A stretch of 64,000 nucleotides of DNA. Origin: Candidatus Helarchaeota archaeon. Its GTDB lineage: Archaea > Asgardarchaeota > Lokiarchaeia > Helarchaeales > RDOG01. The first letter of the stretch is position 1. Every line of letters begins with the position of its first letter. The position numbers and the translations under genes are program-made. The stretch is taken from assembly GCA_019058315.1 (NCBI GenBank), contig JAHPZH010000003.1, forward strand, positions 41,669 to 105,668, read 5' to 3'. Below the pieces are notes generated by a model that worked only from the letters and a program-made list of their open reading frames with translations, did no database searches and was not told the DNA's origin. Below are positions 10,662-55,408 of the stretch, one piece after another.

Positions 10662-10679
10662 TCTTATCACTTTAATATA

Positions 10680-10694
10680 TATAACACCGTTATA
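10680..10694. promoter_or_regulatory. Palindromic operator TATAACACCGTTATA
   Basis: On the minus strand it directly follows cgaaat-gttaatata (BRE/TATA-like); upstream of DUF166. Confidence 0.8.
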
Positions 10695-10838
10695 TATTAA
10701 CATTTCGGTTGAATAAAATTCAAGAAATGGTGAGGTTTAAAATAACATAATTTATAATAAAAATAACGTAATTTTTAACGAATTTAACTTAAATTATAAA
10801 AAAATATATAAGTTTTAATTTATTTAAAAAAAATAAAT

Positions 10839-11621
10839 TTAAGGAAGAATTACGGCATCGACAAATAATTCATATTCTTCATCTTCAGATAGATCATGCA
10901 CTCTAACTTTTTCTAAAGTATTAGTTCCTGATATTTCTAATAGTGCGGATTGTCTAAGTACTTTTACATCAGATATTTTTAATTTTGATTTTAAATCTTG
11001 TTCTGCTAAAATTGTTTTTAATGGAGTTATAAAAATAACCCGTCCAGTTTTTTCGGTTAGATCTAAGGCTAATTGAATACTTTTTTCACCATTTTCAACA
11101 ACTAACACCCTTTTACCTTGAAATTCATCGAGATTATCATAGGTTCTATATACTCCTTTATCAATAAATTGGTTTAATCCAATTATATCTGTGGGTTGAC
11201 TCACTTTACAAGTACCAGTAGCAGGTATAACGGACTCTATCTTTGTACCAGTTCTATAATTATTAATGGCTTCATGAAGTGCATCTGCAGCTAAATTTGA
11301 ACAATGCATTTTAATTGGTGGTAACCCTTCTAATTCGTCAGCTACATTCTGTCTAGTAATTTTCATAGCCTCATCTAAGGTTTTTCCTTTAGCCAATTCT
11401 GTTACCATACTAGATGTTGCTATTGCACTTCCACAGCCAAAAGTTTTAAATTTAATATCAACAATTTTATCATCTTTGACTCTAATATAAATATCCATTA
11501 AATCTCCACAGACAGGATTACCAACTCTTCCGACTGCAACATCATCTCCTTCTAATGTTCCAACATTACGAGGATTTCGGAAATGTTCCATAACTTTTTT
11601 TGAATATTGAGTGGATTTCAT
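10839..11621 (-). CDS. iscU: Fe-S scaffold IscU/NifU with a C-terminal degenerate thioredoxin-reductase-like domain
   Basis: GNPVCGD, FGCGSAIA, LPPIKMHC; extra ~120 aa (KGVYRTY...GKRVLVVENGEKSIQLALDL...VDAVIL). Confidence 0.9.
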   Translation of the reverse strand: MKSTQYSKKVMEHFRNPRNVGTLEGDDVAVGRVGNPVCGDLMDIYIRVKDDKIVDIKFKTFGCGSAIATSSMVTELAKGKTLDEAMKITRQNVADELEGLPPIKMHCSNLAADALHEAINNYRTGTKIESVIPATGTCKVSQPTDIIGLNQFIDKGVYRTYDNLDEFQGKRVLVVENGEKSIQLALDLTEKTGRVIFITPLKTILAEQDLKSKLKISDVKVLRQSALLEISGTNTLEKVRVHDLSEDEEYELFVDAVILP

Positions 11622-13515: not shown

Positions 13516-13600
13516 TTAAAAACCTCCATGAAGTTTTGATTTGAGATGAATTTTTTTCTATTATATTTTGTGGATATTTTTTATTATCCTTATGTTATAA

Positions 13601-13615
13601 TATAACGCTGTTATA
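13601..13615. promoter_or_regulatory. Palindromic operator TATAACGCTGTTATA
   Basis: Minus strand reads cgaaac-atttaaaa then the operator; upstream of tusA-dsrE-iscS-iscU. Confidence 0.8.
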
Positions 13616-13737
13616 TTTTAAATGTTTCGATCAAAACAAAATGGTTGAAAATTAAAAAGTGAGAAAATACCTAATTAAGTAATTTAAATTAAAAAAAAAA
13701 TAAAAAAATAAAAGCTTTAATAACAAAATAGCTTATA

Positions 13738-23501: not shown

Positions 23502-24443
23502 TTATTGAGAATTTTTTATCATTTCATTCAATAAAACTTTATTTTTTTCAGCGATTTCTTCTGGAACTGTGACTAAATATTCTTCAGGTTGTTTTTCTAT
23601 CACGTATTTTATAGATTCCAATGTATTTTTTTTCATGTTATAACAGATTGGTTTGTCATGTGCCTTATATATTTTCTTATTTTTGGTTTCTCTTTCTAAT
23701 TTCTGAAGTAAGCCAATTTCTGTGGCGATAATAAATTCATCAAATTCCGAATCCACAACAAATTTAAACATTTGACTTGTAGAGCCAATAAAATCAGTAA
23801 TTTCTTGAACTTCTGGACGACATTCAGGATGGGCAAGAATTAGTGCCTTTGGATGGTCTTTTTTAACATTTTTTATGTATTTAGCATCAAATTTTTCATG
23901 TACTATACAACATCCTTTTAAAGGAATTGGATTGACTGTGATATTTAATTTAGATTGAATATAATAAGCCATATTCTTGTCAGGTGCAAAATTTATAAGA
24001 GGTTTGTTGATTAATTTTGCAATTTTTAAAGCATTAGCAGAAGTACAAATATAATCTGCTTGTGCTCTAGCAGCTGCAGTGGTGTTTATATACATCATTA
24101 AGGGGATTTCGGGATTAATAGTTTTTATCTTTTTCATTAATTTCTCAGGTGCACCTCTTGCCATTGGACAGAAAGCCTCATAATTCCCAATATAAACCTT
24201 CTTTGTGGGGTTTAATATTGCCCCAGATTCAGCCATGAACCATACTGCTGCAAAAATCATATTATTTGCTGAATCCGCCTTTTTTGCAAATTCTGCCAAC
24301 TTGAGACTATCAGCACAAAAATCTGCGATTACTTGAATTTCAGGAACTTGATAATTATGAGCAAGAATAAGAAAATCATGTTTTTCCTTTAGTTTTAAAA
24401 TTTCATTTTGTAAATTCTTAATTTTTTCAGGAAAATTTGACAT
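23502..24443 (-). CDS. nadA: Quinolinate synthase
   Basis: ILAHNYQ, FMAE, CPMA, YINT, CTSANA, CIVH, AHPEC, CYNMK. Confidence 0.95.
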   Translation of the reverse strand: MSNFPEKIKNLQNEILKLKEKHDFLILAHNYQVPEIQVIADFCADSLKLAEFAKKADSANNMIFAAVWFMAESGAILNPTKKVYIGNYEAFCPMARGAPEKLMKKIKTINPEIPLMMYINTTAAARAQADYICTSANALKIAKLINKPLINFAPDKNMAYYIQSKLNITVNPIPLKGCCIVHEKFDAKYIKNVKKDHPKALILAHPECRPEVQEITDFIGSTSQMFKFVVDSEFDEFIIATEIGLLQKLERETKNKKIYKAHDKPICYNMKKNTLESIKYVIEKQPEEYLVTVPEEIAEKNKVLLNEMIKNSQ

Positions 24444-24564
24444 TTTTAATCGGACTATAAATTGATTTTTATATTAAAACACAGTATTTCAGAATTTTAA
24501 AGATTGTTTAGAATTAATTAAAAATATAGATAGATTTATTTAAATTAGTATAATCTTATAGTTT

Positions 24565-24579
24565 TATAACAGTGATAAC
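24565..24579. promoter_or_regulatory. Operator variant TATAACAGTGATAAC upstream of the HTH regulator
   Basis: Follows a cttata TATA-like box; suggests autoregulation. Confidence 0.65.
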
Positions 24580-24612
24580 AAACAAAATCTTCTTCAAGTA
24601 ATTAAAATCTTA

Positions 24613-25032
24613 ATGGTGAATTATATGTTATTTCCTTGTGAAATGATTGTCAAAAAAATATTGCCCGCATTTAGAGCATATTTAGTAAAACAATTGTATG
24701 AAAAATATAAAATGAAACAAAATGATATTGCAAAATGTTTAGGAATTACACAACCCAGTGTTAGCTTGTATCTTTCAGGCGAAAGGGGAGGGTTTGAAGA
24801 TATTTTTAAATCTGAAGAAGTAGCTAAAAATATAAAGGTACTCGATGAATTATCTGAAAAGTTAGTAAATAAAAAATTATCAGAACAAGAATTAATGGAA
24901 GATATGTGTCAATTATGTTCACTTTTAAGAAAAATGGGGGCATACTGTGAAATTCATGGTGAATTGGACAAGAACCGTAAGGTTCCTTGTGGATTATGTG
25001 ACGTATGTTTTGGGGAGAAAGAAAAGCTTTAA
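24613..25032 (+). CDS. XRE-type HTH transcriptional regulator (COG2522/ThiR-N-like) with Cys-rich C-terminus
   Basis: PCEMIVKKILPAFRA, QNDIAKCLGITQPSVSLYLSGERG HTH; CQLC...CEIH...CGLCDVC. Confidence 0.88.
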   Translation: MVNYMLFPCEMIVKKILPAFRAYLVKQLYEKYKMKQNDIAKCLGITQPSVSLYLSGERGGFEDIFKSEEVAKNIKVLDELSEKLVNKKLSEQELMEDMCQLCSLLRKMGAYCEIHGELDKNRKVPCGLCDVCFGEKEKL

Positions 25033-25106
25033 TTTTTTCTAGCTAGTGCTCATTTTTTTATTCAATTGAGATAAATTTGTCAATAAAAACTTTTATATAG
25101 TTGGTT

Positions 25107-25140
25107 TATTACACTGTTATACTGAGATAACATTGTTATA
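25107..25140. promoter_or_regulatory. Tandem operators TATTACACTGTTATA (25107-25121) and GATAACATTGTTATA (25126-25140)
   Basis: Downstream of aaaaac-ttttata (BRE/TATA); upstream of the operon ending in cysE-cysK. Confidence 0.85.
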
Positions 25141-25201
25141 AAAATGAATTTTTGAATTAATTAAATGTTTGGAAAATATAAACGAAAATTCTGTTTAATG
25201 G

Positions 25202-26002
25202 GTGAATAAGATGACAATGGTAAAAAGAAAAATCATAAAAATTGATGACGAATTATGTACTGGATGCGGTAGTTGTATTCCAGCTTGTCCTGAGCAAGCA
25301 TTAGAAATTGTTGATACGCCAAAGGGAAAAAAGGCAAGGATTATAAAAGATCTCTACTGCGATGGACTTGGTGCTTGTCTTGGTGATTGTCCGATTGGTG
25401 CCTTAACAATTGTGGAAAAAGAAACAGACCCATATGATGATGATGCGACCATTGAGCGGATAAAAGAAGTAGCACCCGAAATGCTAGCAACTCATATAAA
25501 ACATATGGAAGAACATACAACTGAATTGGCAGAACAACATACACATGAAATTCATCCAGAGATACATACTTGTACTTCATCTAGAGTTCTTGATTGGACA
25601 AATGAAGAAACTTCAACTGGAACAACAGCGAGAATTGATTCACAATTGAGACAATGGCCTGTTCAGCTCCATTTAGTTCCACCAAATGCTCCATATTTCC
25701 AAAATGCAGACTTAGTAATAGTTGCTGATTGTGTTCCGTTTTCCTATGCCAACTTTCACCACGATTTTATAAAAGGGCACCCCATTGCTGTAGGTTGTCC
25801 AAAACTGGACGATGCAAAAGCTTATGTTGAAAAAATTGCACAAATCATTAGTGTTTCAAATTTAAAGAGCATTCAAGTCGTTCATATGGAAGTTCCTTGT
25901 TGTTTTGGTCTTGTGCAGATTGTTCACCAAGCATTAAAGAAAGCAGGAAAATCAGTCCCAATTAAAGAAATTACAATAAGCATTAAGGGACAAAAAAAAT
26001 AA
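25202..26002 (+). CDS. 4Fe-4S dicluster ferredoxin-like protein with C-terminal Cys-containing domain
   Basis: CTGCGSCIPACP, CDGLGACLGDCP, QWPVQL, ADC, GCPKLD, MEVPCC. Confidence 0.88.
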   Translation: MNKMTMVKRKIIKIDDELCTGCGSCIPACPEQALEIVDTPKGKKARIIKDLYCDGLGACLGDCPIGALTIVEKETDPYDDDATIERIKEVAPEMLATHIKHMEEHTTELAEQHTHEIHPEIHTCTSSRVLDWTNEETSTGTTARIDSQLRQWPVQLHLVPPNAPYFQNADLVIVADCVPFSYANFHHDFIKGHPIAVGCPKLDDAKAYVEKIAQIISVSNLKSIQVVHMEVPCCFGLVQIVHQALKKAGKSVPIKEITISIKGQKK

Positions 26003-26030
26003 CTCTTTTTTTTTCTTTAGAGGTGAAAAT

Positions 26031-27086
26031 ATGAGTAGTTTTAATAATGCAGGTAAATTAACACCAGAAGATTTTGACAAATATATTTTTCCATATTTAG
26101 GTGCTTCAAATAAAAATGTATTAGTCGGACCTAAACATGGAGTAGATGCGGCAGTGGTTGATCTCGGTGATAAATTAATGGTTGTAGCAGAGGATCCAAC
26201 ATATGGACTTCCCTCTTTGGGATTTAAAAAATTTGGCTGGGCAATAGTCCATATTTGTTGTTCAGATGTAGCATGCCTTGCAGCAAAGCCAGAACTTATG
26301 ACCATATGTCTATTATTACCTCCAGAAACTCAAAAATCTGTATTACAAGATGTTATGACTACAATGAATACCGAATGTAAAAAATTGGGGGTTTCTTTGA
26401 TAGGAGGACACACTGGAGTAATACCTGGAATTACTTTTCCATTGAATGGCGGCTGTACAGTTTTTGGCTTTACAACTAAAGATAAATTAATAGTACCTAG
26501 TGGTGCTAGGGTAGGTGATAAAGTGATAGTCACAAAAGGTGCAGCCGTAGAAGCCGCTTCCATTTTAGCTCTGCAATATCCTAGTGGGCTTGAAAAAAAA
26601 TTTGGAACTGATCTAGTAAAAAATGCCCAGGAAATGTTTTATGATATGTCTGTAGTTAAAGATGCTATGGTTACAAGAGAGATTAATGGAGTTAGTGCGA
26701 TGCATGATGCAACAGAGGGTGGAGTTTTAGGTGGAATTTATGAAGTTGGTAATGCGAGCAATGTAGGTATGAAAATATATAAAGACCAAATCATATTAAC
26801 TGATGAAGCTAGTAAAATTTGTGATTTCTTTGAGATCGACCCTTATTATTCAATAAGTGAAGGTACTTTAGTTATTACCGTCAGTGAAAATGCTGCTGAA
26901 GATGTTCTAAAAGCTCTTAAAAAGGAAAAAATTAACGCATCCATTGTAGGAGAATGTGTTGATAAGAATCAAGGTATGCAACTCTTTGAAACAGATCGTC
27001 AGATAGGCACATTTAGATTCCCAGAAACAGATCCTTTTTGGGCAGCATATTTCAAAGCGATTGAGTATTCTCAGGAGATAAAATAA
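26031..27086 (+). CDS. AIR synthase-family protein (PurM/HypE/ThiL/SelD superfamily)
   Basis: GVDAAV, EDP, SDVA, GGHT, MHDATEGG, ISEG. Confidence 0.85.
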   Translation: MSSFNNAGKLTPEDFDKYIFPYLGASNKNVLVGPKHGVDAAVVDLGDKLMVVAEDPTYGLPSLGFKKFGWAIVHICCSDVACLAAKPELMTICLLLPPETQKSVLQDVMTTMNTECKKLGVSLIGGHTGVIPGITFPLNGGCTVFGFTTKDKLIVPSGARVGDKVIVTKGAAVEAASILALQYPSGLEKKFGTDLVKNAQEMFYDMSVVKDAMVTREINGVSAMHDATEGGVLGGIYEVGNASNVGMKIYKDQIILTDEASKICDFFEIDPYYSISEGTLVITVSENAAEDVLKALKKEKINASIVGECVDKNQGMQLFETDRQIGTFRFPETDPFWAAYFKAIEYSQEIK

Positions 27087-27686
27087 GTGGATATTTATAA
27101 TGAAAAAGATCTAGTTTTAGGTAACCTGTGCAGAGCTTTAAAAATTTTACAAAATAGTAAAAATTTTTATAAGTTAATCCCAGAGGTTAGAATTAATTTC
27201 GTTTATGCCTTAAAAAATGCAAAACTACCTTCTGATGTAGCAGGTATTCCTGGTAGAATTACAGCTATAGGTGATAAACTAATTTTTCCATCCTATCCGC
27301 AATTCGGAGTTTCTGATCATATGGCACGAGCAATGATTGAAATTATGAAATATAATTCCAGTAAGAGAGCAGGTATCAATTTTAAATATACTGATGAATT
27401 AAGAAATTGGATTAAAGAGTATAGTAAAAGAAATAACCTAATTTTTGGATTAATTGATAGATCTAAAGAACCAAAAGAAGTTAGTAGAATTGATGGTCAT
27501 TCCATGCCATGGAAGATTAAAAATTTAATCGAAAGTACTAACAAAGAGGTCCCTGACATCTTTTACGAAAATGAAGCTCTTGGCAAAGAACCATTATTTG
27601 TATTAATCGGAAATTCCGCAATTGAAGTTGCTGAAAAAGTAATAGAAATTACTTCAAGTTTTTATAAAGAGGTTGATGAATTATGA
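27087..27686 (+). CDS. thiN: ThiN-type thiamine-phosphate synthase-family protein
   Basis: [36 protein letters not shown]. Confidence 0.8.
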
Positions 27687-28516
27687 TTAAAAAAGATGGA
27701 TTAAATTTTCATTGCCTTAGTTGTGGAGATCTTCTAGGAGAAAAGGATCAAGAGGCTCTTTGTACTAAATGTCTCTTGAATCTTGAGTTTGATGTTGGTC
27801 AAATTGATTTCGACCATATGAAAGATCATATATTACAAATTCTAGACCATTTTTCATCCGATGTAAGATCAGCTTTTGAAAAAGATCCAGCAGCTAGGTC
27901 AATAGTTGAAGTATTAACTTCTTATCCAGGAATTAAAGCAATACTTCTTCATAGAGTTGCACATTTCTTTTATGAAGTAGGATTACCATTTGTTCCACGT
28001 TTTTTATCAGATGTTTCAAGACAAATTACTGGAATTGATATTCACCCTGGAGCGGAAATAGGGAGTAATTTTTTTATTGATCATGGCTCGGGTACTGTTA
28101 TTGGTGAAACTGCAGAGGTTGGAGATAATTGTACACTTTATCAAAATGTAACTTTGGGAGGTACAAGTCTAAAACGAGAAAAACGACATCCAACTTTAGG
28201 TAATAATGTAGTTATAGGGGCTGGTGCAAAACTTCTTGGACCTATAAAGATCGGAAATAATGTAAAAGTGGGAGCAAATTCTGTCGTTACGAAAGATATT
28301 CCTGATAATGCTGTAGTTGTAGGGGTACCTGGGAGGATAATTTCAAGAGAAGGTAAAAAAATACCCCGAATTGATTTAGATCATGCAGATTTACCTGACC
28401 CTATAGTTAATCTAATTAAAAGACTTGAAGAGAGGATCATAAATTTAGAACATAAAACCACTGAAGATGAGGAAGAATTGGGAGAAGAATTTTTTGATTA
28501 TGGAGGAGGAATATAG
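27683..28516 (+). CDS. cysE: Serine O-acetyltransferase with N-terminal CxxC-x12-CxxC extension
   Basis: [28 protein letters not shown] hexapeptide repeats; ends FFDYGGGI. Confidence 0.93.
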
Positions 28517-28530
28517 GAGGGAATAAAAAT

Positions 28531-29460
28531 ATGTCAAAAATATATAATAATATAATAGAGACTATTGGAAATACTCCAATAGTGAAAATTAATAGAATAA
28601 ATAAAAATCTTAATCTAAAACCAACAATTTTAGTTAAATTAGAATCTTTTAATCCAGCTAGTAGTGTCAAAGATCGTATAGCAATGGCTATGATTGAAGA
28701 TGCAGAAAAAGCGGGAATTATTAAACCAGATAGTCATATAGTTGAACCCACAAGTGGAAATACGGGGATTGGTCTCGCTATTATCTGTGCTGCAAAGGGA
28801 TATAAATTGACTTTGACAATGCCAGAAAGTATGTCGATAGAAAGGAGAAAAATATTAAAAGCATTTGGAGCAGATTTGGTTTTAACCGAGCCAAGTAAGG
28901 GAATGAAAGGAGCAATTATGAAAGCAGAAGAATTAGCAAAGGACTCCGATAAGATTTATATACCTCAACAATTCAAAAACCTTTCAAACCCAAGAATACA
29001 CAGAGAAACTACTGCTGTAGAAATTCTAGAAGCAACAGGTGGTAAATTGGATGCTTTTGTTTCTGGTATTGGAACCGGAGGGACAATAACAGGAGTTGGT
29101 GAAGTTCTTAAAGAAAAGATCAAGAATATTAAAATTTATGCTGTCGAACCTGAGGGATCTCCAGTTTTATCTGGAGGAACACCTGGACCCCATAAAATTC
29201 AAGGAATTGGAGCTGGATTCATTCCAGATGTATTAAATACTAAAATATATGATGAAGTAATTAAAGTAAATTATGAACAAGCCTCAGAATCTGCAAGAAA
29301 TTTAGCTAAATTAGAAGGAATTTTCGTAGGAATATCCTCTGGAGCTGCAATGTATGCAACATTAACAGTAGCGAAAAGAATGGATAAAAATCAGGTTATT
29401 TTAGGAATACTTCCTGATACTGGTGAACGATACTTAACTACAGAATTATGGAACTATTAA
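28531..29460 (+). CDS. cysK: Cysteine synthase A
   Basis: NPASSVKDRIA, EPTSGNTG, GTGGT, HKIQGIGAG, PDTGERY. Confidence 0.96.
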   Translation: MSKIYNNIIETIGNTPIVKINRINKNLNLKPTILVKLESFNPASSVKDRIAMAMIEDAEKAGIIKPDSHIVEPTSGNTGIGLAIICAAKGYKLTLTMPESMSIERRKILKAFGADLVLTEPSKGMKGAIMKAEELAKDSDKIYIPQQFKNLSNPRIHRETTAVEILEATGGKLDAFVSGIGTGGTITGVGEVLKEKIKNIKIYAVEPEGSPVLSGGTPGPHKIQGIGAGFIPDVLNTKIYDEVIKVNYEQASESARNLAKLEGIFVGISSGAAMYATLTVAKRMDKNQVILGILPDTGERYLTTELWNY

Positions 29461-38195: not shown

Positions 38196-39326
38196 TTAAT
38201 CACCCAATATTTCCAAAAATGCTTCAATTCGAGTTCTTAGTTGTCCTAAATCAACTCCATATTCGGTTTCTAAATTTAGGATTGGAATCCCAATTTTGTT
38301 TAATTCTTCTTTAAAAATTGGGTAGTCATATTTAAAATTATCACAAAATTTTAGAGTATGATAAATAACTCCATCTATTTTATAATCTTCAATTGCATTC
38401 AACACATAATTTAAACGTGAACGTGAATCTGTTTCTCTCATACGTGGGCATTGAATTTTATTAAATTGATATTCAGCAATCGCAGTGACTGGGTTTTCAA
38501 TTTCTTCATTGATTAAATCAGAGGCATAACGACTTTCAGTGCAAGTTTCTTCAAAAACGACCATTCCTCCTGCTGATTCTACTGTTTTCTGGATTCTCGT
38601 ATCTTGTTCTGCTAAGATACTTCCTGAGTACAGAATTCTCTTTCTTCCATTGATTTTTGGGTAATTATCAATTTCTTTTATCAATAAAGTTAAAAGATCA
38701 TTGACCTTCTCCTTATCTAAAATCATCGCAGCACGATATACCTCGAAAGCATCAATACTGTTTATCGGTACAGCAATCTCTCTTCTTTTCTCTTGAAATT
38801 TTTTTAATAATCGTCTCGTTTCATTAAATATTCCTATTGAATTGGAAATTTCATCATTTGTGATCTTAACATCCAAAAAATCTTCGAGACTTTTAATAAA
38901 TTTTGTAAGCTCTTTTTCGAAATAATTCACTCCATTCTTTGTTTTATTCCTAGGTAAAAGAATTTGATATATGAAGGAGGGTTTATTTAGATGAATTTGC
39001 CATATTTCTAGTAATCTTCTAATAGCATCGCATGTATGTGCAGATACAACTCCATCTAGGAAATCCAATGAATTGCCTGTAAGTTTGTAGCCAAGGATTG
39101 CGCGTGCAAAAGGGCATATCCTTGAAAAAAATAAGTTATCTGCTTCAGATGCTGGAGTGTCTTCATCGCCCCCAGGATAGATTCGGTACGGGATAGCCCC
39201 TCCAGCATGTATAATTTCTTCTGGTGTATAATTACAAATCCAACCAACTATTTTCTTATCATTTATTGTACGGAGTTCATCTATTCTTTTATTATTAAGA
39301 TCCTTAATCTTATCTAAAATTGTCAT
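38196..39326 (-). CDS. 2-hydroxyacyl-CoA dehydratase (HgdB/BcrC-like) subunit
   Basis: GWICNYTPEEIIHA, ICP, TCD, KFCD, GQLRTRIEAFLE. Confidence 0.9.
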   Translation of the reverse strand: MTILDKIKDLNNKRIDELRTINDKKIVGWICNYTPEEIIHAGGAIPYRIYPGGDEDTPASEADNLFFSRICPFARAILGYKLTGNSLDFLDGVVSAHTCDAIRRLLEIWQIHLNKPSFIYQILLPRNKTKNGVNYFEKELTKFIKSLEDFLDVKITNDEISNSIGIFNETRRLLKKFQEKRREIAVPINSIDAFEVYRAAMILDKEKVNDLLTLLIKEIDNYPKINGRKRILYSGSILAEQDTRIQKTVESAGGMVVFEETCTESRYASDLINEEIENPVTAIAEYQFNKIQCPRMRETDSRSRLNYVLNAIEDYKIDGVIYHTLKFCDNFKYDYPIFKEELNKIGIPILNLETEYGVDLGQLRTRIEAFLEILGD

Positions 39327-39341
39327 TATTACACCGTTATA
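39327..39341. promoter_or_regulatory. Operator TATTACACCGTTATA abutting the ATG of 39326
   Basis: Matches the consensus and overlaps the probable RBS. Confidence 0.7.
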
Positions 39342-39399
39342 TTCCTATTTTATCATATCAAATTTTATTTTCAAGATTGTAAATATTAAATAAGTGGGA

Positions 39400-40188: not shown

Positions 40189-40392
40189 ATAAATTCACTC
40201 AATTCTGTTTTTTTTCCAAAATAGAAGAATTCTCAATAAATACTTCATGATTTTACTTTCTTAATAATTTATGTTGTTTTTAGACATATTCTGAAAATAG
40301 ATCTTTTTTTTTATAATTCAATTTATGAAAAAAATATTTGCGGAATCCCGCTGAGTAGCATTTAATTATTTCTTTATAACATTTACTATGAT

Positions 40393-40407
40393 TATAACGA
40401 TGTAATA
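40393..40407. promoter_or_regulatory. Operator TATAACGATGTAATA
   Basis: Minus strand reads cgaaa-tttattaa then the operator; ~200 bp upstream of the activator gene. Confidence 0.7.
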
Positions 40408-40492
40408 TAATTAATAAATTTCGTTAATTTACTTAGTTTAGACAGATTTCAAAAAAAAAATTAATTAGTTATAGTTTTCTATATATAAAAAA

Positions 40493-41680: not shown

Positions 41681-41766
41681 ATTATCTATATTTTTATTTA
41701 GTTGGTGTTTAAGATTTAATGCAAGATTTAAATCGTATTAATAAGATTTATTATTTCTTTTTAAAT

Positions 41767-41781
41767 TATTACATTGTAATA
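41767..41781. promoter_or_regulatory. Operator TATTACATTGTAATA (perfect palindrome)
   Basis: 22 bp upstream of the larE ATG. Confidence 0.8.
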
Positions 41782-41803
41782 ATAAAAAGATGTCTTGACT
41801 TAA

Positions 41804-43485: not shown

Positions 43486-43529
43486 TTATATCCCTTTTTT
43501 AAGCTTTATAAAATGAAAATTATTTAAAT

Positions 43530-43557
43530 TATCACATTGTTATATTACAATGTTATG
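43530..43557. promoter_or_regulatory. Overlapping tandem operators TATCACATTGTTATA (43530-43544) and TATTACAATGTTATG (43543-43557)
   Basis: Immediately after gaaaa-ttatttaaa (BRE/TATA); between the divergent DUF2099 and ThiI-like genes. Confidence 0.85.
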
Positions 43558-43600
43558 TATTGATATTTATTGATTACGATTATTATCAGATGAATGACAA

Positions 43601-45606: not shown

Positions 45607-45643
45607 AAAAATTCTCCTTAATAACATTAATAATTTATTCAAA

Positions 45644-45658
45644 TATGACATTGTTATA
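45644..45658. promoter_or_regulatory. Operator TATGACATTGTTATA
   Basis: Upstream of the solute-binding-fold gene (minus strand). Confidence 0.8.
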
Positions 45659-45768
45659 TTAATAATGCTAATAAATTATACGATTATTACTATTAGTAAT
45701 ACTTTCCTTAGGAAATATTACTTATATGCATAACATTTATAAATAATTGCTAATTAGTTTAAGTAATA

Positions 45769-45783
45769 AATTACATTGTAATA
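45769..45783. promoter_or_regulatory. Operator AATTACATTGTAATA
   Basis: 35 bp upstream of the thrC-like ATG. Confidence 0.75.
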
Positions 45784-45817
45784 AATTACCAATAGTAATA
45801 ATGGTGATGAAGAAAAA

Positions 45818-51677: not shown

Positions 51678-51753
51678 ATCTAATTTTTCTCTCAAACTTT
51701 ATTTGTTCATTTAAAAAAAAATCAAAATCTTTATAACAAAAGATAATAATTAA

Positions 51754-51768
51754 TATTACAGTGTAATA
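51754..51768. promoter_or_regulatory. Operator TATTACAGTGTAATA (perfect palindrome)
   Basis: Downstream of a tttata box at ~51730; upstream of 51781. Confidence 0.8.
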
Positions 51769-51780
51769 ATCATTTTTAAC

Positions 51781-53540: not shown

Positions 53541-54827
53541 TTATTTGATAAAATATGCATATTCGATTAATCTGTTAATTTTTCTAAATGATTTTTTATC
53601 TAATTTATTTTTTAGAGACTCCAATAATCTACGTCGAAATTCTATGCCTAAATGTGCAATTTCATCTCCAGGTTCTAAAAGACCTTCCAGGAGGGGCTGA
53701 ATATTTTTAGTATATTCTTCACTAAGTTCTTTATCTTGAAGAATAAGAGCCATTGTATCAATTAACAAATCCATAAATCCACTATGATATACCAGATGAT
53801 GCATTTTTTGGGAATTTTGGATTATTTCAAAGATTCTACTACATTTTCTTTGGTATTTTAATAAAAATGAAGCTGTATAATCAGATTTCTTCTTTGCTTT
53901 AATTAATGTTTCCGCAGCAAGTCTACCACTCATACGTGCATGCCAAATACCTTCATATGTAAAACGGTCAATAAATCCAGCCGCATCTCCAACTAGAATT
54001 ACTTTATTCCCGTATATATGTTCAAGAATACGATCAGGAATTGGTGCAGCCCATATATGCTTTCCTTCGAACTCAATCGGTTTAGCGCCTTCAAGTTTGG
54101 GACGAATGATTGGATGGTGCTTTAAAACTTCTTGAAAGTGTTTGATATCAACATTTTTATTGCACATTCCTACAGATACACCCTCTTTTTTAGTAAAAAT
54201 CCAAGTATATCCATGAGAAGCAATTTGTGAATTAAAGAATAATTCATATACTCCACCACCAAATCTTTCTTCTACTACATGACTGGGTAAATAATATTCA
54301 GCCTGAATCGCTTGTTCAATTTCTAATGGTCGATCAATTTTTAATTTTCGATGTAATTTATTACCATGGACTCCTGTTGCAATAACAATTGCGTCCCCCT
54401 TTATCCGCTTTATATGTGAATTTGATTTTACTTCAACCTCAACGAAATCCTTGTGACATGAAATATTAAATACCTCAGAATTAGTTTCAATTATCGCTCC
54501 ACTTCTTATCGCTTTTTCTCTCAAATAACAATCTAATCGATTTCGGTATGTAAGTTGCCCAATTTTTGTTGAATTATTATCACTTTTTAAATCTACAAAT
54601 TCAGTAGGACCATGTAATATTAAATGATCAACGTCCCTTTCAATAATTTCCGGAGGTAACGAGCCGAAATCTAATTCGTTATGCCACATTAAACCCCCAG
54701 CACATGCTTTATATCGATTATTATCACCTTTTTCAAATAAAATGACATCCACACCATTTTTAGCTAAAAATTCTGCACAAGTTGCTCCTCCAGGTCCCCC
54801 ACCAGCTATAATTACATCATATTTCAT
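53541..54827 (-). CDS. Geranylgeranyl reductase-family FAD oxidoreductase
   Basis: GGGPGG, KACAGG, GYTWIF, LVGDAAG, TYEGI. Confidence 0.9.
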   Translation of the reverse strand: MKYDVIIAGGGPGGATCAEFLAKNGVDVILFEKGDNNRYKACAGGLMWHNELDFGSLPPEIIERDVDHLILHGPTEFVDLKSDNNSTKIGQLTYRNRLDCYLREKAIRSGAIIETNSEVFNISCHKDFVEVEVKSNSHIKRIKGDAIVIATGVHGNKLHRKLKIDRPLEIEQAIQAEYYLPSHVVEERFGGGVYELFFNSQIASHGYTWIFTKKEGVSVGMCNKNVDIKHFQEVLKHHPIIRPKLEGAKPIEFEGKHIWAAPIPDRILEHIYGNKVILVGDAAGFIDRFTYEGIWHARMSGRLAAETLIKAKKKSDYTASFLLKYQRKCSRIFEIIQNSQKMHHLVYHSGFMDLLIDTMALILQDKELSEEYTKNIQPLLEGLLEPGDEIAHLGIEFRRRLLESLKNKLDKKSFRKINRLIEYAYFIK

Positions 54828-54839
54828 AAATAAACCTCA

Positions 54840-54881
54840 TATTACATTGTTATATTTACATTGTTATATGACAATGTTATT
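54840..54881. promoter_or_regulatory. Triple tandem operator (54840-54854, 54854-54868, 54867-54881)
   Basis: tattacattgttata / atttacattgttata / tatgacaatgttatt, filling the gap between gaaaa-tacttatata (minus strand) and the RBS of 54827. Confidence 0.9.
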
Positions 54882-55024
54882 ATATAAGTATTTTCTTTAT
54901 TGTAACAAATCAGAAAATTAGGGAAAAGTTGCTCTTTGCTTTTTATTGTTAATTATTTGAATTATTGATAGATACTGAAATCTCATTAATATGATGCAAT
55001 ATTTTATATATGATAAAGTATTAT

Positions 55025-55047: not shown

Positions 55048-55078
55048 TAAAGAAAAATAAAAATAAGGATTGATTAAA

Positions 55079-55198
55079 ATGATGGCTACACTTGAAAATG
55101 TTGTTTATGCATACACTCTTTTAGATTCGGATTATAAGGAAATAAATATAATTTTGGAATTCATTGAATTCATATTCAATTTAAATAATTTTTTTTAA
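55079..55198 (+). CDS. Putative 39-aa small protein MMATLENVVYAYTLLDSDYKEINIILEFIEFIFNLNNFF
   Basis: Not in the ORF track; TATA-like element, operator and aagga RBS upstream. Confidence 0.4.
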   Translation: MMATLENVVYAYTLLDSDYKEINIILEFIEFIFNLNNFF

Positions 55199-55219: not shown

Positions 55220-55408
55220 CTAATCCACAACTATAGAAATTGCTTTTTTCGGACATTTTTCTACACAAAGAAAACAATGAACACAATTTTCTTTACGAAT
55301 ACGTTCCACTTTTTTTGTTTTTTCATTCAACTTATAGACCGATCTAAGACAAAAATCTTCACATAGACCACAACCATTACATTTTTCTGGATCAACTTTT
55401 ATCTTCAT
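55220..55408 (-). CDS. 2[4Fe-4S] ferredoxin
   Basis: CNGCGLCEDFC and CVHCFLCVEKCP. Confidence 0.9.
   Translation of the reverse strand: MKIKVDPEKCNGCGLCEDFCLRSVYKLNEKTKKVERIRKENCVHCFLCVEKCPKKAISIVVD

Follow-up and report, generated by a model that had tools for sequence, protein, structure and literature searches.

The window analysed here, a stretch of 64,000 nucleotides from a Candidatus Helarchaeota archaeon (contig JAHPZH010000003.1, positions 41,669 to 105,668), contains the gene of a small protein of 135 amino acids, built from an XRE-type helix-turn-helix (HTH) and a Cys/His-rich helical domain, which is very probably the cognate regulator of a short palindrome, ATAAC-N3-GTTAT, recurring in front of sulfur and iron-sulfur (Fe-S) genes of the same genome. 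The explanation that best accounts for the data, in which this protein is both the regulator and a repressor, the signal being left aside, is held with a probability of roughly 0.6. In this genome, the proposed regulon comprises about fifteen promoters of genes devoted to sulfur, cysteine and Fe-S assembly. To our knowledge, the regulation of cysteine synthesis, of the persulfide relay and of Fe-S cluster assembly in archaea is largely unknown, and a concrete protein, a precise operator and a regulon of some fifteen promoters in a single Asgard genome are offered here for testing. Unless otherwise indicated, positions are those of the window.

The palindrome was searched for as a 17-mer (TTATAACANTGTTATAA) and as its 13-mer core (ATNACRNYGTNAT), and can be written as the half-sites ATAAC-N3-GTTAT or in the extended form TTATAACA-N-TGTTATAA. 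The window contains 16 copies of the 17-mer when up to three mismatches are allowed, where 2.5 would be expected, and none of 100 shuffles attained this number. The strict 13-mer is found 30 times in the assembly (5.79 Mb in 12 contigs, about 30% G+C, Helarchaeales-like Asgard), and 15 of these copies fall inside the window, i.e., in 1.1% of the length; with three mismatches allowed to the 17-mer, the 258 matches counted genome-wide are close to the chance level. Nearly all sites of the window are intergenic or located at gene starts, next to sulfur or Fe-S genes, and one more strict site, 4 kb outside the window on its upstream side, precedes a Pyr_redox_2/Rubredoxin_C gene. An earlier note on this DNA had placed one operator in the promoter of the regulator gene and two directly after it. 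The latter two, O1 and O2, are both strong sites, each with two mismatches to the 17-mer and a perfect core. The former is much poorer: located between the divergent nadA and regulator genes, it combines a good left half-site with a degenerate right one, differs from the 17-mer at three positions, does not match the 13-mer core and takes roughly the 45th rank in the genome. Taken alone, it does not exceed chance, because the number of equally poor matches over the genome is about what chance would give. Its position is nevertheless backed by close relatives, which possess strict sites in the same intergenic region.

The link between the protein and the palindrome comes from these and other relatives. 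In three genomes of the same order, namely G003, G005 and G006, the orthologue is preceded at a distance of 65-104 nt by a perfect ATAACANTGTTAT, in G005 at two loci. Relatives with 92% and 77% identity contain one and two strict sites, respectively, between nadA and the regulator, together with further strict sites before the tusA-dsrE-iscS and Fer4-AIRS operons. When whole loci were scored with a position weight matrix (PWM), the top site fell in the 150 nt preceding the family member for 9 out of 15 loci, including members of only 28-41% identity from unrelated metagenomic contigs and from a Micrarchaeota genome. For stand-alone members from other Asgard families, ATAACGNYGTTAT precedes the gene itself by 19-62 nt, and members fused to a ThiN domain are preceded by ATAAC/ACAAC-N3-GTTAT-like sites. 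The earlier note had suggested looking at the co-occurrence of gene and motif across genomes, and the outcome agrees with its view of the protein as the cognate regulator: the palindrome precedes dsrE by 304-355 nt, a position in front of tusA, in all five genomes with the gene (PWM scores of 10.6-21.0) and in none of the 25 related genomes devoid of it (PWM maximum of 8.2). On comparative grounds, a motif that travels with a gene in this way usually marks an operator and the autoregulated factor that reads it.

Tests at the level of single promoters were the only informative ones in this respect, unlike genome-wide counts: in 41 relatives, strict 13-mers numbered 5-24 everywhere, with no separation according to the presence of the gene. 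The Fer4 protein of 394 amino acids, tried as a second co-occurrence test, was dropped as belonging to a large paralogous family (15 copies in this genome); its two true orthologues have a site in G005 and none in G006. Two side observations concern the motif itself. In the loci of two Asgard homologues, L137 (G084) and L138 (G075), the same half-sites occur some 50 nt before the family member with one extra central base, ATTACAAT(T/A)GTAAT, which may represent an operator variant with a different spacing. In L055, L062, L072, L075 and L077, all without the regulator, a different conserved element resembling GGGCAATGTT(A/T)TAA recurs at a constant distance of about 155-159 nt upstream of dsrE, probably inside the tusA coding sequence.

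The sign of the regulation is read from the position of the operators. At most promoters, the operator starts 0-23 nt past a TATA-like box and stops 14-70 nt short of the start codon. Downstream of the regulator gene, O1 and O2 cover the expected start site of the next operon, since the TATA-like box TTTTATATA occupies 25091-25099 and O1 begins at 25106. An operator placed just past the TATA box is typical of archaeal repressors, which block the recruitment of RNA polymerase, and, provided that the protein is the cognate regulator, operator position makes it quite probable that it acts as a repressor. The autoregulation that the earlier note had added to this repression looks well supported as a family trait by the strict own-promoter sites of the relatives, and finds only the weak site described above in the present genome.

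The open reading frame (ORF) of the regulator extends from 24613 to 25032 on the forward strand; its likely start is at 24625, giving 135 residues, because all close homologues begin with MLFPCE, and the gene is a real one. The HTH remains below the Pfam cut-offs (HTH_60 with 20 bits for a cut-off of 24.1, HTH_3 or PF01381 with 18.9 for a cut-off of 23, and HTH_37, also sub-threshold), and HTH_3 is matched by 76 of 110 aligned family members (E≤0.001). The AlphaFold2 model (pLDDT 92.8, pTM 0.86) is all-helical, with an HTH that aligns locally with XRE-type and DeoR/SorC-type HTH structures. A sequence search of the PDB gave a best E-value of 0.005 covering the HTH only, Foldseek gave no PDB match at E≤0.001, and no solved structure resembling the whole protein was found by these comparisons. 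Bcl-2-type helical bundles, the best match in VIA-align (Z 5.4), were rejected as lying within the noise expected for helical models. Among the ORFs of at least 90 amino acids and the scanned intergenic small ORFs of the window, no other DNA-binding domain was recognised with Pfam, so that the protein keeps the place of sole recognisable DNA-binding regulator given to it in the earlier note; nine ORFs are devoid of any Pfam match.

The family is large and archaeal, with 1850 cluster representatives at E≤0.001, and occurs in 138 of 201 sampled Asgard genomes; in this sample, no member was detected in 43 genomes belonging to two families of the class Lokiarchaeia. A single member is present in the genome considered here. 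Stand-alone members are widespread and co-reside with ThiN-fused members in many Asgard genomes, and in a tree with a weak backbone the query clusters with stand-alone sequences, outside the fused clades. Apart from several representatives on contigs too short for any neighbours to be seen, distant members are surrounded by genes linked to sulfur, Fe-S clusters or metals, e.g., IscS-ThiF-ThiS-regulator, regulator-NifX-like-IscU-Mrp/ParA beside FeoAB/DtxR, or a cation-efflux gene with superoxide dismutase, and in other Asgard lineages the neighbours are homologous to the Fer4_266, ThiF, CysK, CysE and PP-loop genes of the window. A related-locus search started from a narrower family alignment returned six loci, including L084, which corresponds to the same contig as L002. 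This contig, DATKTP010000173.1, is titled as a 'Candidatus Deferrimicrobium sp.' metagenome-assembled genome and displays the same ORFs as contig C173 of the same-order G003, identical over the compared N-terminal stretches of 50 residues, so that record name and placement seem to conflict.

The cysteine pattern listed in the earlier note, CxxC-x9-CxxH-x10-CxxCxxC with an N-terminal PCE, is present exactly as described. Counted in 167 diverse family members, C5 is kept in 154, E6 in 160, C95 in 157, C98 in 161, C108 in 123, H111 in 105 (with Cys in 11 more), C122 in 129 and C125 in 126. The six Cys and one His residues conserved across the family form two modules, C5/C95/C98 and C108/H111/C122/C125, which are lost independently: short forms retain the triad alone, and a few members without the triad retain the other module. 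The latter, in which His and Cys can replace each other, resembles a zinc site. A homodimer was modelled with a score of 0.54 against 0.01 for the best of three controls; the mark set for this score is reached by 20 of 30 proteins whose solved structure is a pair of one chain and by 1 of 23 whose structure is a single chain, counts which give a rough calibration only, an own alignment having been used. The score expresses the confidence of a model and not a measurement. Between runs, at least 92% of the contacts agree, with a partner pLDDT of at least 76. The modelled interface comprises residues 1-13, 39-41, 87-99 and 122-130, and C5 touches C5' of the other subunit, which would bring the two triads together on the two-fold axis. 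This arrangement would be compatible with a cluster or metal bridging the subunits or with a disulfide/persulfide switch between them, and just as compatible with a purely structural clasp.

From these elements a mechanism can be proposed in which the 135-residue protein would serve as the cognate repressor of a sulfur-mobilisation regulon covering cysteine synthesis, the persulfide/thiocarboxylate relay, IscS/IscU, nadA and several Fe-S or redox enzymes. The protein would most likely be a homodimer, the two XRE-type HTH motifs of which read the half-sites of ATAAC-N3-GTTAT, and bound dimers would block the recruitment of RNA polymerase because the operators lie directly past the TATA-like boxes, over the expected start; the multiple abutting sites of some promoters would ensure a tighter control. 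Each subunit would possess a probable structural Cys3His site of the zinc type (C108, H111, C122 and C125) and, at the modelled two-fold axis of the dimer, a second module made of C5 and C95xxC98. In the mechanism preferred here, this interfacial cluster of cysteines would hold an Fe-S cluster or a metal, or would become oxidised or persulfidated, and its state would set both the geometry of the dimer and its affinity for DNA. With sulfur and Fe-S clusters in sufficient supply, the regulon would stay repressed, and shortage or oxidative damage would lift the repression, which would amount to an IscR-like feedback loop built on a different fold. Sensing of an Fe-S cluster or of thiols is plausible on the dimer model, and the regulon content, the sulfur/Fe-S contexts of distant members and the lack of any other obvious sensor in the stand-alone protein speak for it; that the triad itself is the sensor is a possibility whose chances fall somewhat short of even. 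With the odds of the three parts multiplied (cognate regulator, repressor, triad as sensor), the complete mechanism is unlikely to be correct in every part.

Various findings weigh against this interpretation. The whole case is comparative or modelled: motif enrichment, the link between motif and family, residue conservation and operator positions were computed, and it is from these that we infer actual binding, the sign of the regulation and the signal. The own-promoter site reaches 12.8 bits only, and autoregulation may therefore be leaky or lost in this genome. All gene-carrying genomes of the dsrE test belong to one order, so that this test alone is not phylogenetically independent and would also fit another clade-specific factor, a weakness covered by the distant loci in which members of 28-41% identity have sites before their own genes. 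That the dimer expresses the confidence of a model must be counted here, as must the seventh Cys, C128, the last one of the CxxCxxC motif, which is not conserved (13 of 167). The palindrome could be read by a different, unrecognised factor, the HTH gene being just one more regulated gene of the island, and the nine ORFs without a Pfam match, the restriction of the co-occurrence test to one order and an HTH_3+CBS protein that recurs near the regulator in some relatives leave some room for such a factor. This is very improbable, since the same half-sites precede family members in distant archaea with differing neighbours, which is the signature of autoregulation, and since the genome contains a single member of the family. 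An HTH_3+CBS protein of this kind is encoded at L100:2994-3557, L101:855-1418 and L102:83-676, adjoining HcyBio/NIL-Fer4 genes of homocysteine synthesis, and may be a second sulfur-related regulator in its own right. Some sites are located upstream of the TATA-like box of one of two divergent genes, e.g., DUF2099, where simple occlusion would not apply. Together with the ability of archaeal regulators such as SurR to act both ways, they agree with a protein that binds the palindrome as an activator or a dual regulator and switches sulfur genes on when sulfur or Fe-S clusters are short. Most sites nevertheless follow the TATA-like box and precede the start codon, with up to three abutting copies over the expected start, which renders this alternative improbable.

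A more serious alternative, although still an unlikely one, retains the same cognate repressor and makes its cysteines merely structural, as zinc sites and dimer clasp, the signal coming from elsewhere: from the stand-alone ThiN of the O1/O2 operon acting as a partner (a 'split ThiR' responding to thiamine phosphates), from a CysE/CysK-type complex comparable to CymR-CysK in Bacillus, or from a small ligand bound between the helices. ThiN-fused relatives (P0039 and P0105) retain PCE, CxxC, CxxH and CxxC in spite of a ThiN effector domain of their own, and the cysteines could therefore be purely structural or serve dimerisation. The genome has no fused ThiR-type copy and possesses an extra stand-alone ThiN (27087-27686) beside the ThiD-ThiN enzyme encoded elsewhere, at C5:438803. 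In the regulated operon, which also contains cysE-cysK, this ThiN starts on the base following the end of a ThiL-like gene (27086/27087), namely the AIR-synthase-like gene 26031-27086, the best NCBIfam scores of which are for HypE, ThiL and SelD, all below cut-off; a thiamine-related signal is thus possible. The GTTAT-type sites in front of the genes of ThiN-fused members point the same way. On the other side, the regulon consists mostly of sulfur relay, cysteine and Fe-S genes and not of thi4, thiC or thiamine transport, the genome-wide strict scan gave no 13-mer at the ThiD-ThiN locus, and cysE in G003 has an operator site without any ThiN upstream. Stand-alone members, with which the query clusters, coexist with fused ones and adjoin sulfur genes. 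The ThiN of the window is equally far from the ThiR-type ThiN and from the ThiN domain of the enzyme (33-37% identity in all pairs), a comparison which does not tell an enzyme-like from a regulator-like protein.

The features of the window are collected in the table. The divergent arrangement of nadA and the regulator is shared by the window and its closest relatives; in four other Helarchaeales/Lokiarchaeia relatives (L002, L005, L007 and L100), regulator and nadA form a two-gene operon behind an operator.

Features of the regulator locus and operator sites of the window (positions in the window; strand given where it applies)
Feature	Position	Strand	Remarks
Operator at the start of the DUF166 gene	10679..10695		downstream of iscU; motif scan
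Operator upstream of tusA	13600..13616		85 nt before tusA, which opens the tusA-dsrE-iscS-iscU operon; kept in 5/5 relatives with the regulator
nadA	23502..24443	-	quinolinate synthase, 4Fe-4S enzyme; divergent from the regulator
Weak operator-like site	24564..24580		between divergent nadA and regulator; left half-site good, right degenerate
Regulator gene	24625..25032	+	XRE-type HTH (about residues 20-56) and Cys/His-rich helical domain, 135 aa
TATA-like box of the downstream operon	25091..25099	+	TTTTATATA; 8 nt before O1; read from sequence
Operator O1	25106..25122		13-mer core 25108-25120
Operator O2	25125..25141		13-mer core 25127-25139
Target operon of O1/O2	25202..29460	+	Fer4/AF_0155-type, AIR-synthase-like, stand-alone ThiN, CysE-like acetyltransferase, CysK-like PLP enzyme
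Operator at HGD-D (HgdD-type) genes	39326..39342		abuts the start codon; three such genes
Operator upstream of a BcrAD/BadFG-type ATPase gene	40392..40408		motif scan
Operator between divergent Fer4 (394 aa) and PP-loop ATPase genes	41766..41782		directly after the TATA-like box of the PP-loop gene
Two abutting operators between divergent DUF2099 and ThiI-like genes	43529..43558		motif scan
Operator at the start of an NMT1-like gene	45643..45659		motif scan
Operator before a sulfur-relay type operon	45768..45784		34 nt before PALP-ThiS-DUF169-ThiF-TusA-DsrH/E/F-like-TusA-radical SAM
Operator before an ORF without Pfam match	51753..51769		12 nt before a 179-aa ORF; motif scan
Three abutting operators	54839..54882		cores 54841-54853, 54855-54867 (one mismatch), 54868-54880
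Only perfect 17-bp palindrome of the genome	55028..55044		no convincing downstream gene

Several of these sites call for comment. The three HgdD-type genes are followed by Fer4_8 and CCG (HdrC/HdrB-like) genes, and the triple operator fills the interval between the TATA-like box and the start codon of an FAD oxidoreductase gene on the minus strand (53541-54827). Downstream of the perfect palindrome occurs merely an ORF of 42 amino acids (55070-55198), followed in antisense orientation by a two-cluster ferredoxin of 62 amino acids (55220-55408); the palindrome may control a small ORF or an RNA. The IscU protein (NifU_N, 10839-11621) possesses a C-terminal region with a weak match to Pyr_redox_3 (E=1.4e-5, below cut-off). 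Outside the window, three strict cores gathered within 135 bp (G000 contig C3:488599-488733; L010:3000-3134) lie directly upstream of the gene of a TFB (TFIIB) paralogue, composed of Zn_Ribbon_TF and TFIIB repeats, and downstream of a ClpB-like gene; this paralogue of a general transcription factor may belong to the same regulon.

The same pair of protein and operator, with its gene neighbourhoods, recurs in many archaeal lineages. In this respect, the stand-alone members are tentatively proposed, with the odds somewhat against it, to be long-missing master regulators of sulfur mobilisation and Fe-S biogenesis in archaea, sensing supply on the dimer axis via an Fe-S cluster shared by the subunits or via a Cys triad reactive to persulfide, analogous to IscR in an unrelated fold, and representing the ancestral module from which ThiR would have arisen by fusion to ThiN. 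If this is true, a single conserved operator, ATAAC-N3-GTTAT, would allow the regulon to be reconstructed across Asgard and other archaea, uncultured Asgard lineages included. Irrespective of this, the family relations make ThiR one fused branch within a larger family.

Three known systems invite a comparison. ThiR, reportedly presented by Rodionov and co-workers in 2017 (J Bacteriol 199:e00743-16, listed among the references of PMC10746257), is said to be the archaeal thiamine regulator, composed of an HTH domain linked to a ThiN domain. The earlier note had related the HTH of the present protein to the N-terminal domain of ThiR, and the family profile does match the HTH+ThiN proteins P0039 (residues 2-129) and P0105 (residues 2-120), including PCE, CxxC, CxxH and CxxC, the match being followed by ThiN; the palindromes in front of the fused members provide a further likeness. 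In contrast, the regulator ends at 25032 after 135 residues without any ThiN match, ThiN being a separate gene, and the grouping with stand-alone members, in the tree with a weak backbone, also sets it apart. Its operators precede thiamine-type genes in one operon, that with the ThiL-like and ThiN genes, and most targets are sulfur and Fe-S genes and not genes of thiamine synthesis or transport. Since the defining fusion is absent, the protein is a relative of ThiR and not a ThiR.

The bacterial repressors IscR, NsrR and CymR are small homodimeric proteins of the Rrf2 family, which control Fe-S assembly or cysteine genes through palindromic operators. In Rrf2 proteins with a cluster, three Cys and one other ligand control DNA binding, and in NsrR the fourth ligand is donated by the other subunit. 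The conserved Cys triad of the archaeal regulator, as modelled at its dimer interface, recalls this arrangement, whereas its XRE-type HTH and all-helical domain differ from the Rrf2 winged helix, and no Rrf2 match was found for it in Pfam, NCBIfam or PDB sequences. SurR from the Thermococcales has two winged helices and a redox switch formed by a CxxC disulfide; its signal is elemental sulfur, and its targets are genes for hydrogenases and for sulfur reduction. Both proteins are archaeal, linked to sulfur and associated with palindromic sites, and the Cys-based switch of SurR offers another parallel, but no relation in sequence or fold was found between them. SurR is mentioned in PMC10746257. 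Among the papers available for searching, none was found on the stand-alone family, on a regulator that controls cys, isc or sulfur-relay genes of archaea through this operator, or on an archaeal counterpart of IscR, SufR or CymR, and the single one that mentions COG2522 (predicted archaeal transcriptional regulators) is unrelated. Taken together, the protein probably represents a known type of regulator, the small HTH repressor linked to a metal or to thiols, built on a domain already known from ThiR, and combines it with a new regulon and probably with a new signal.

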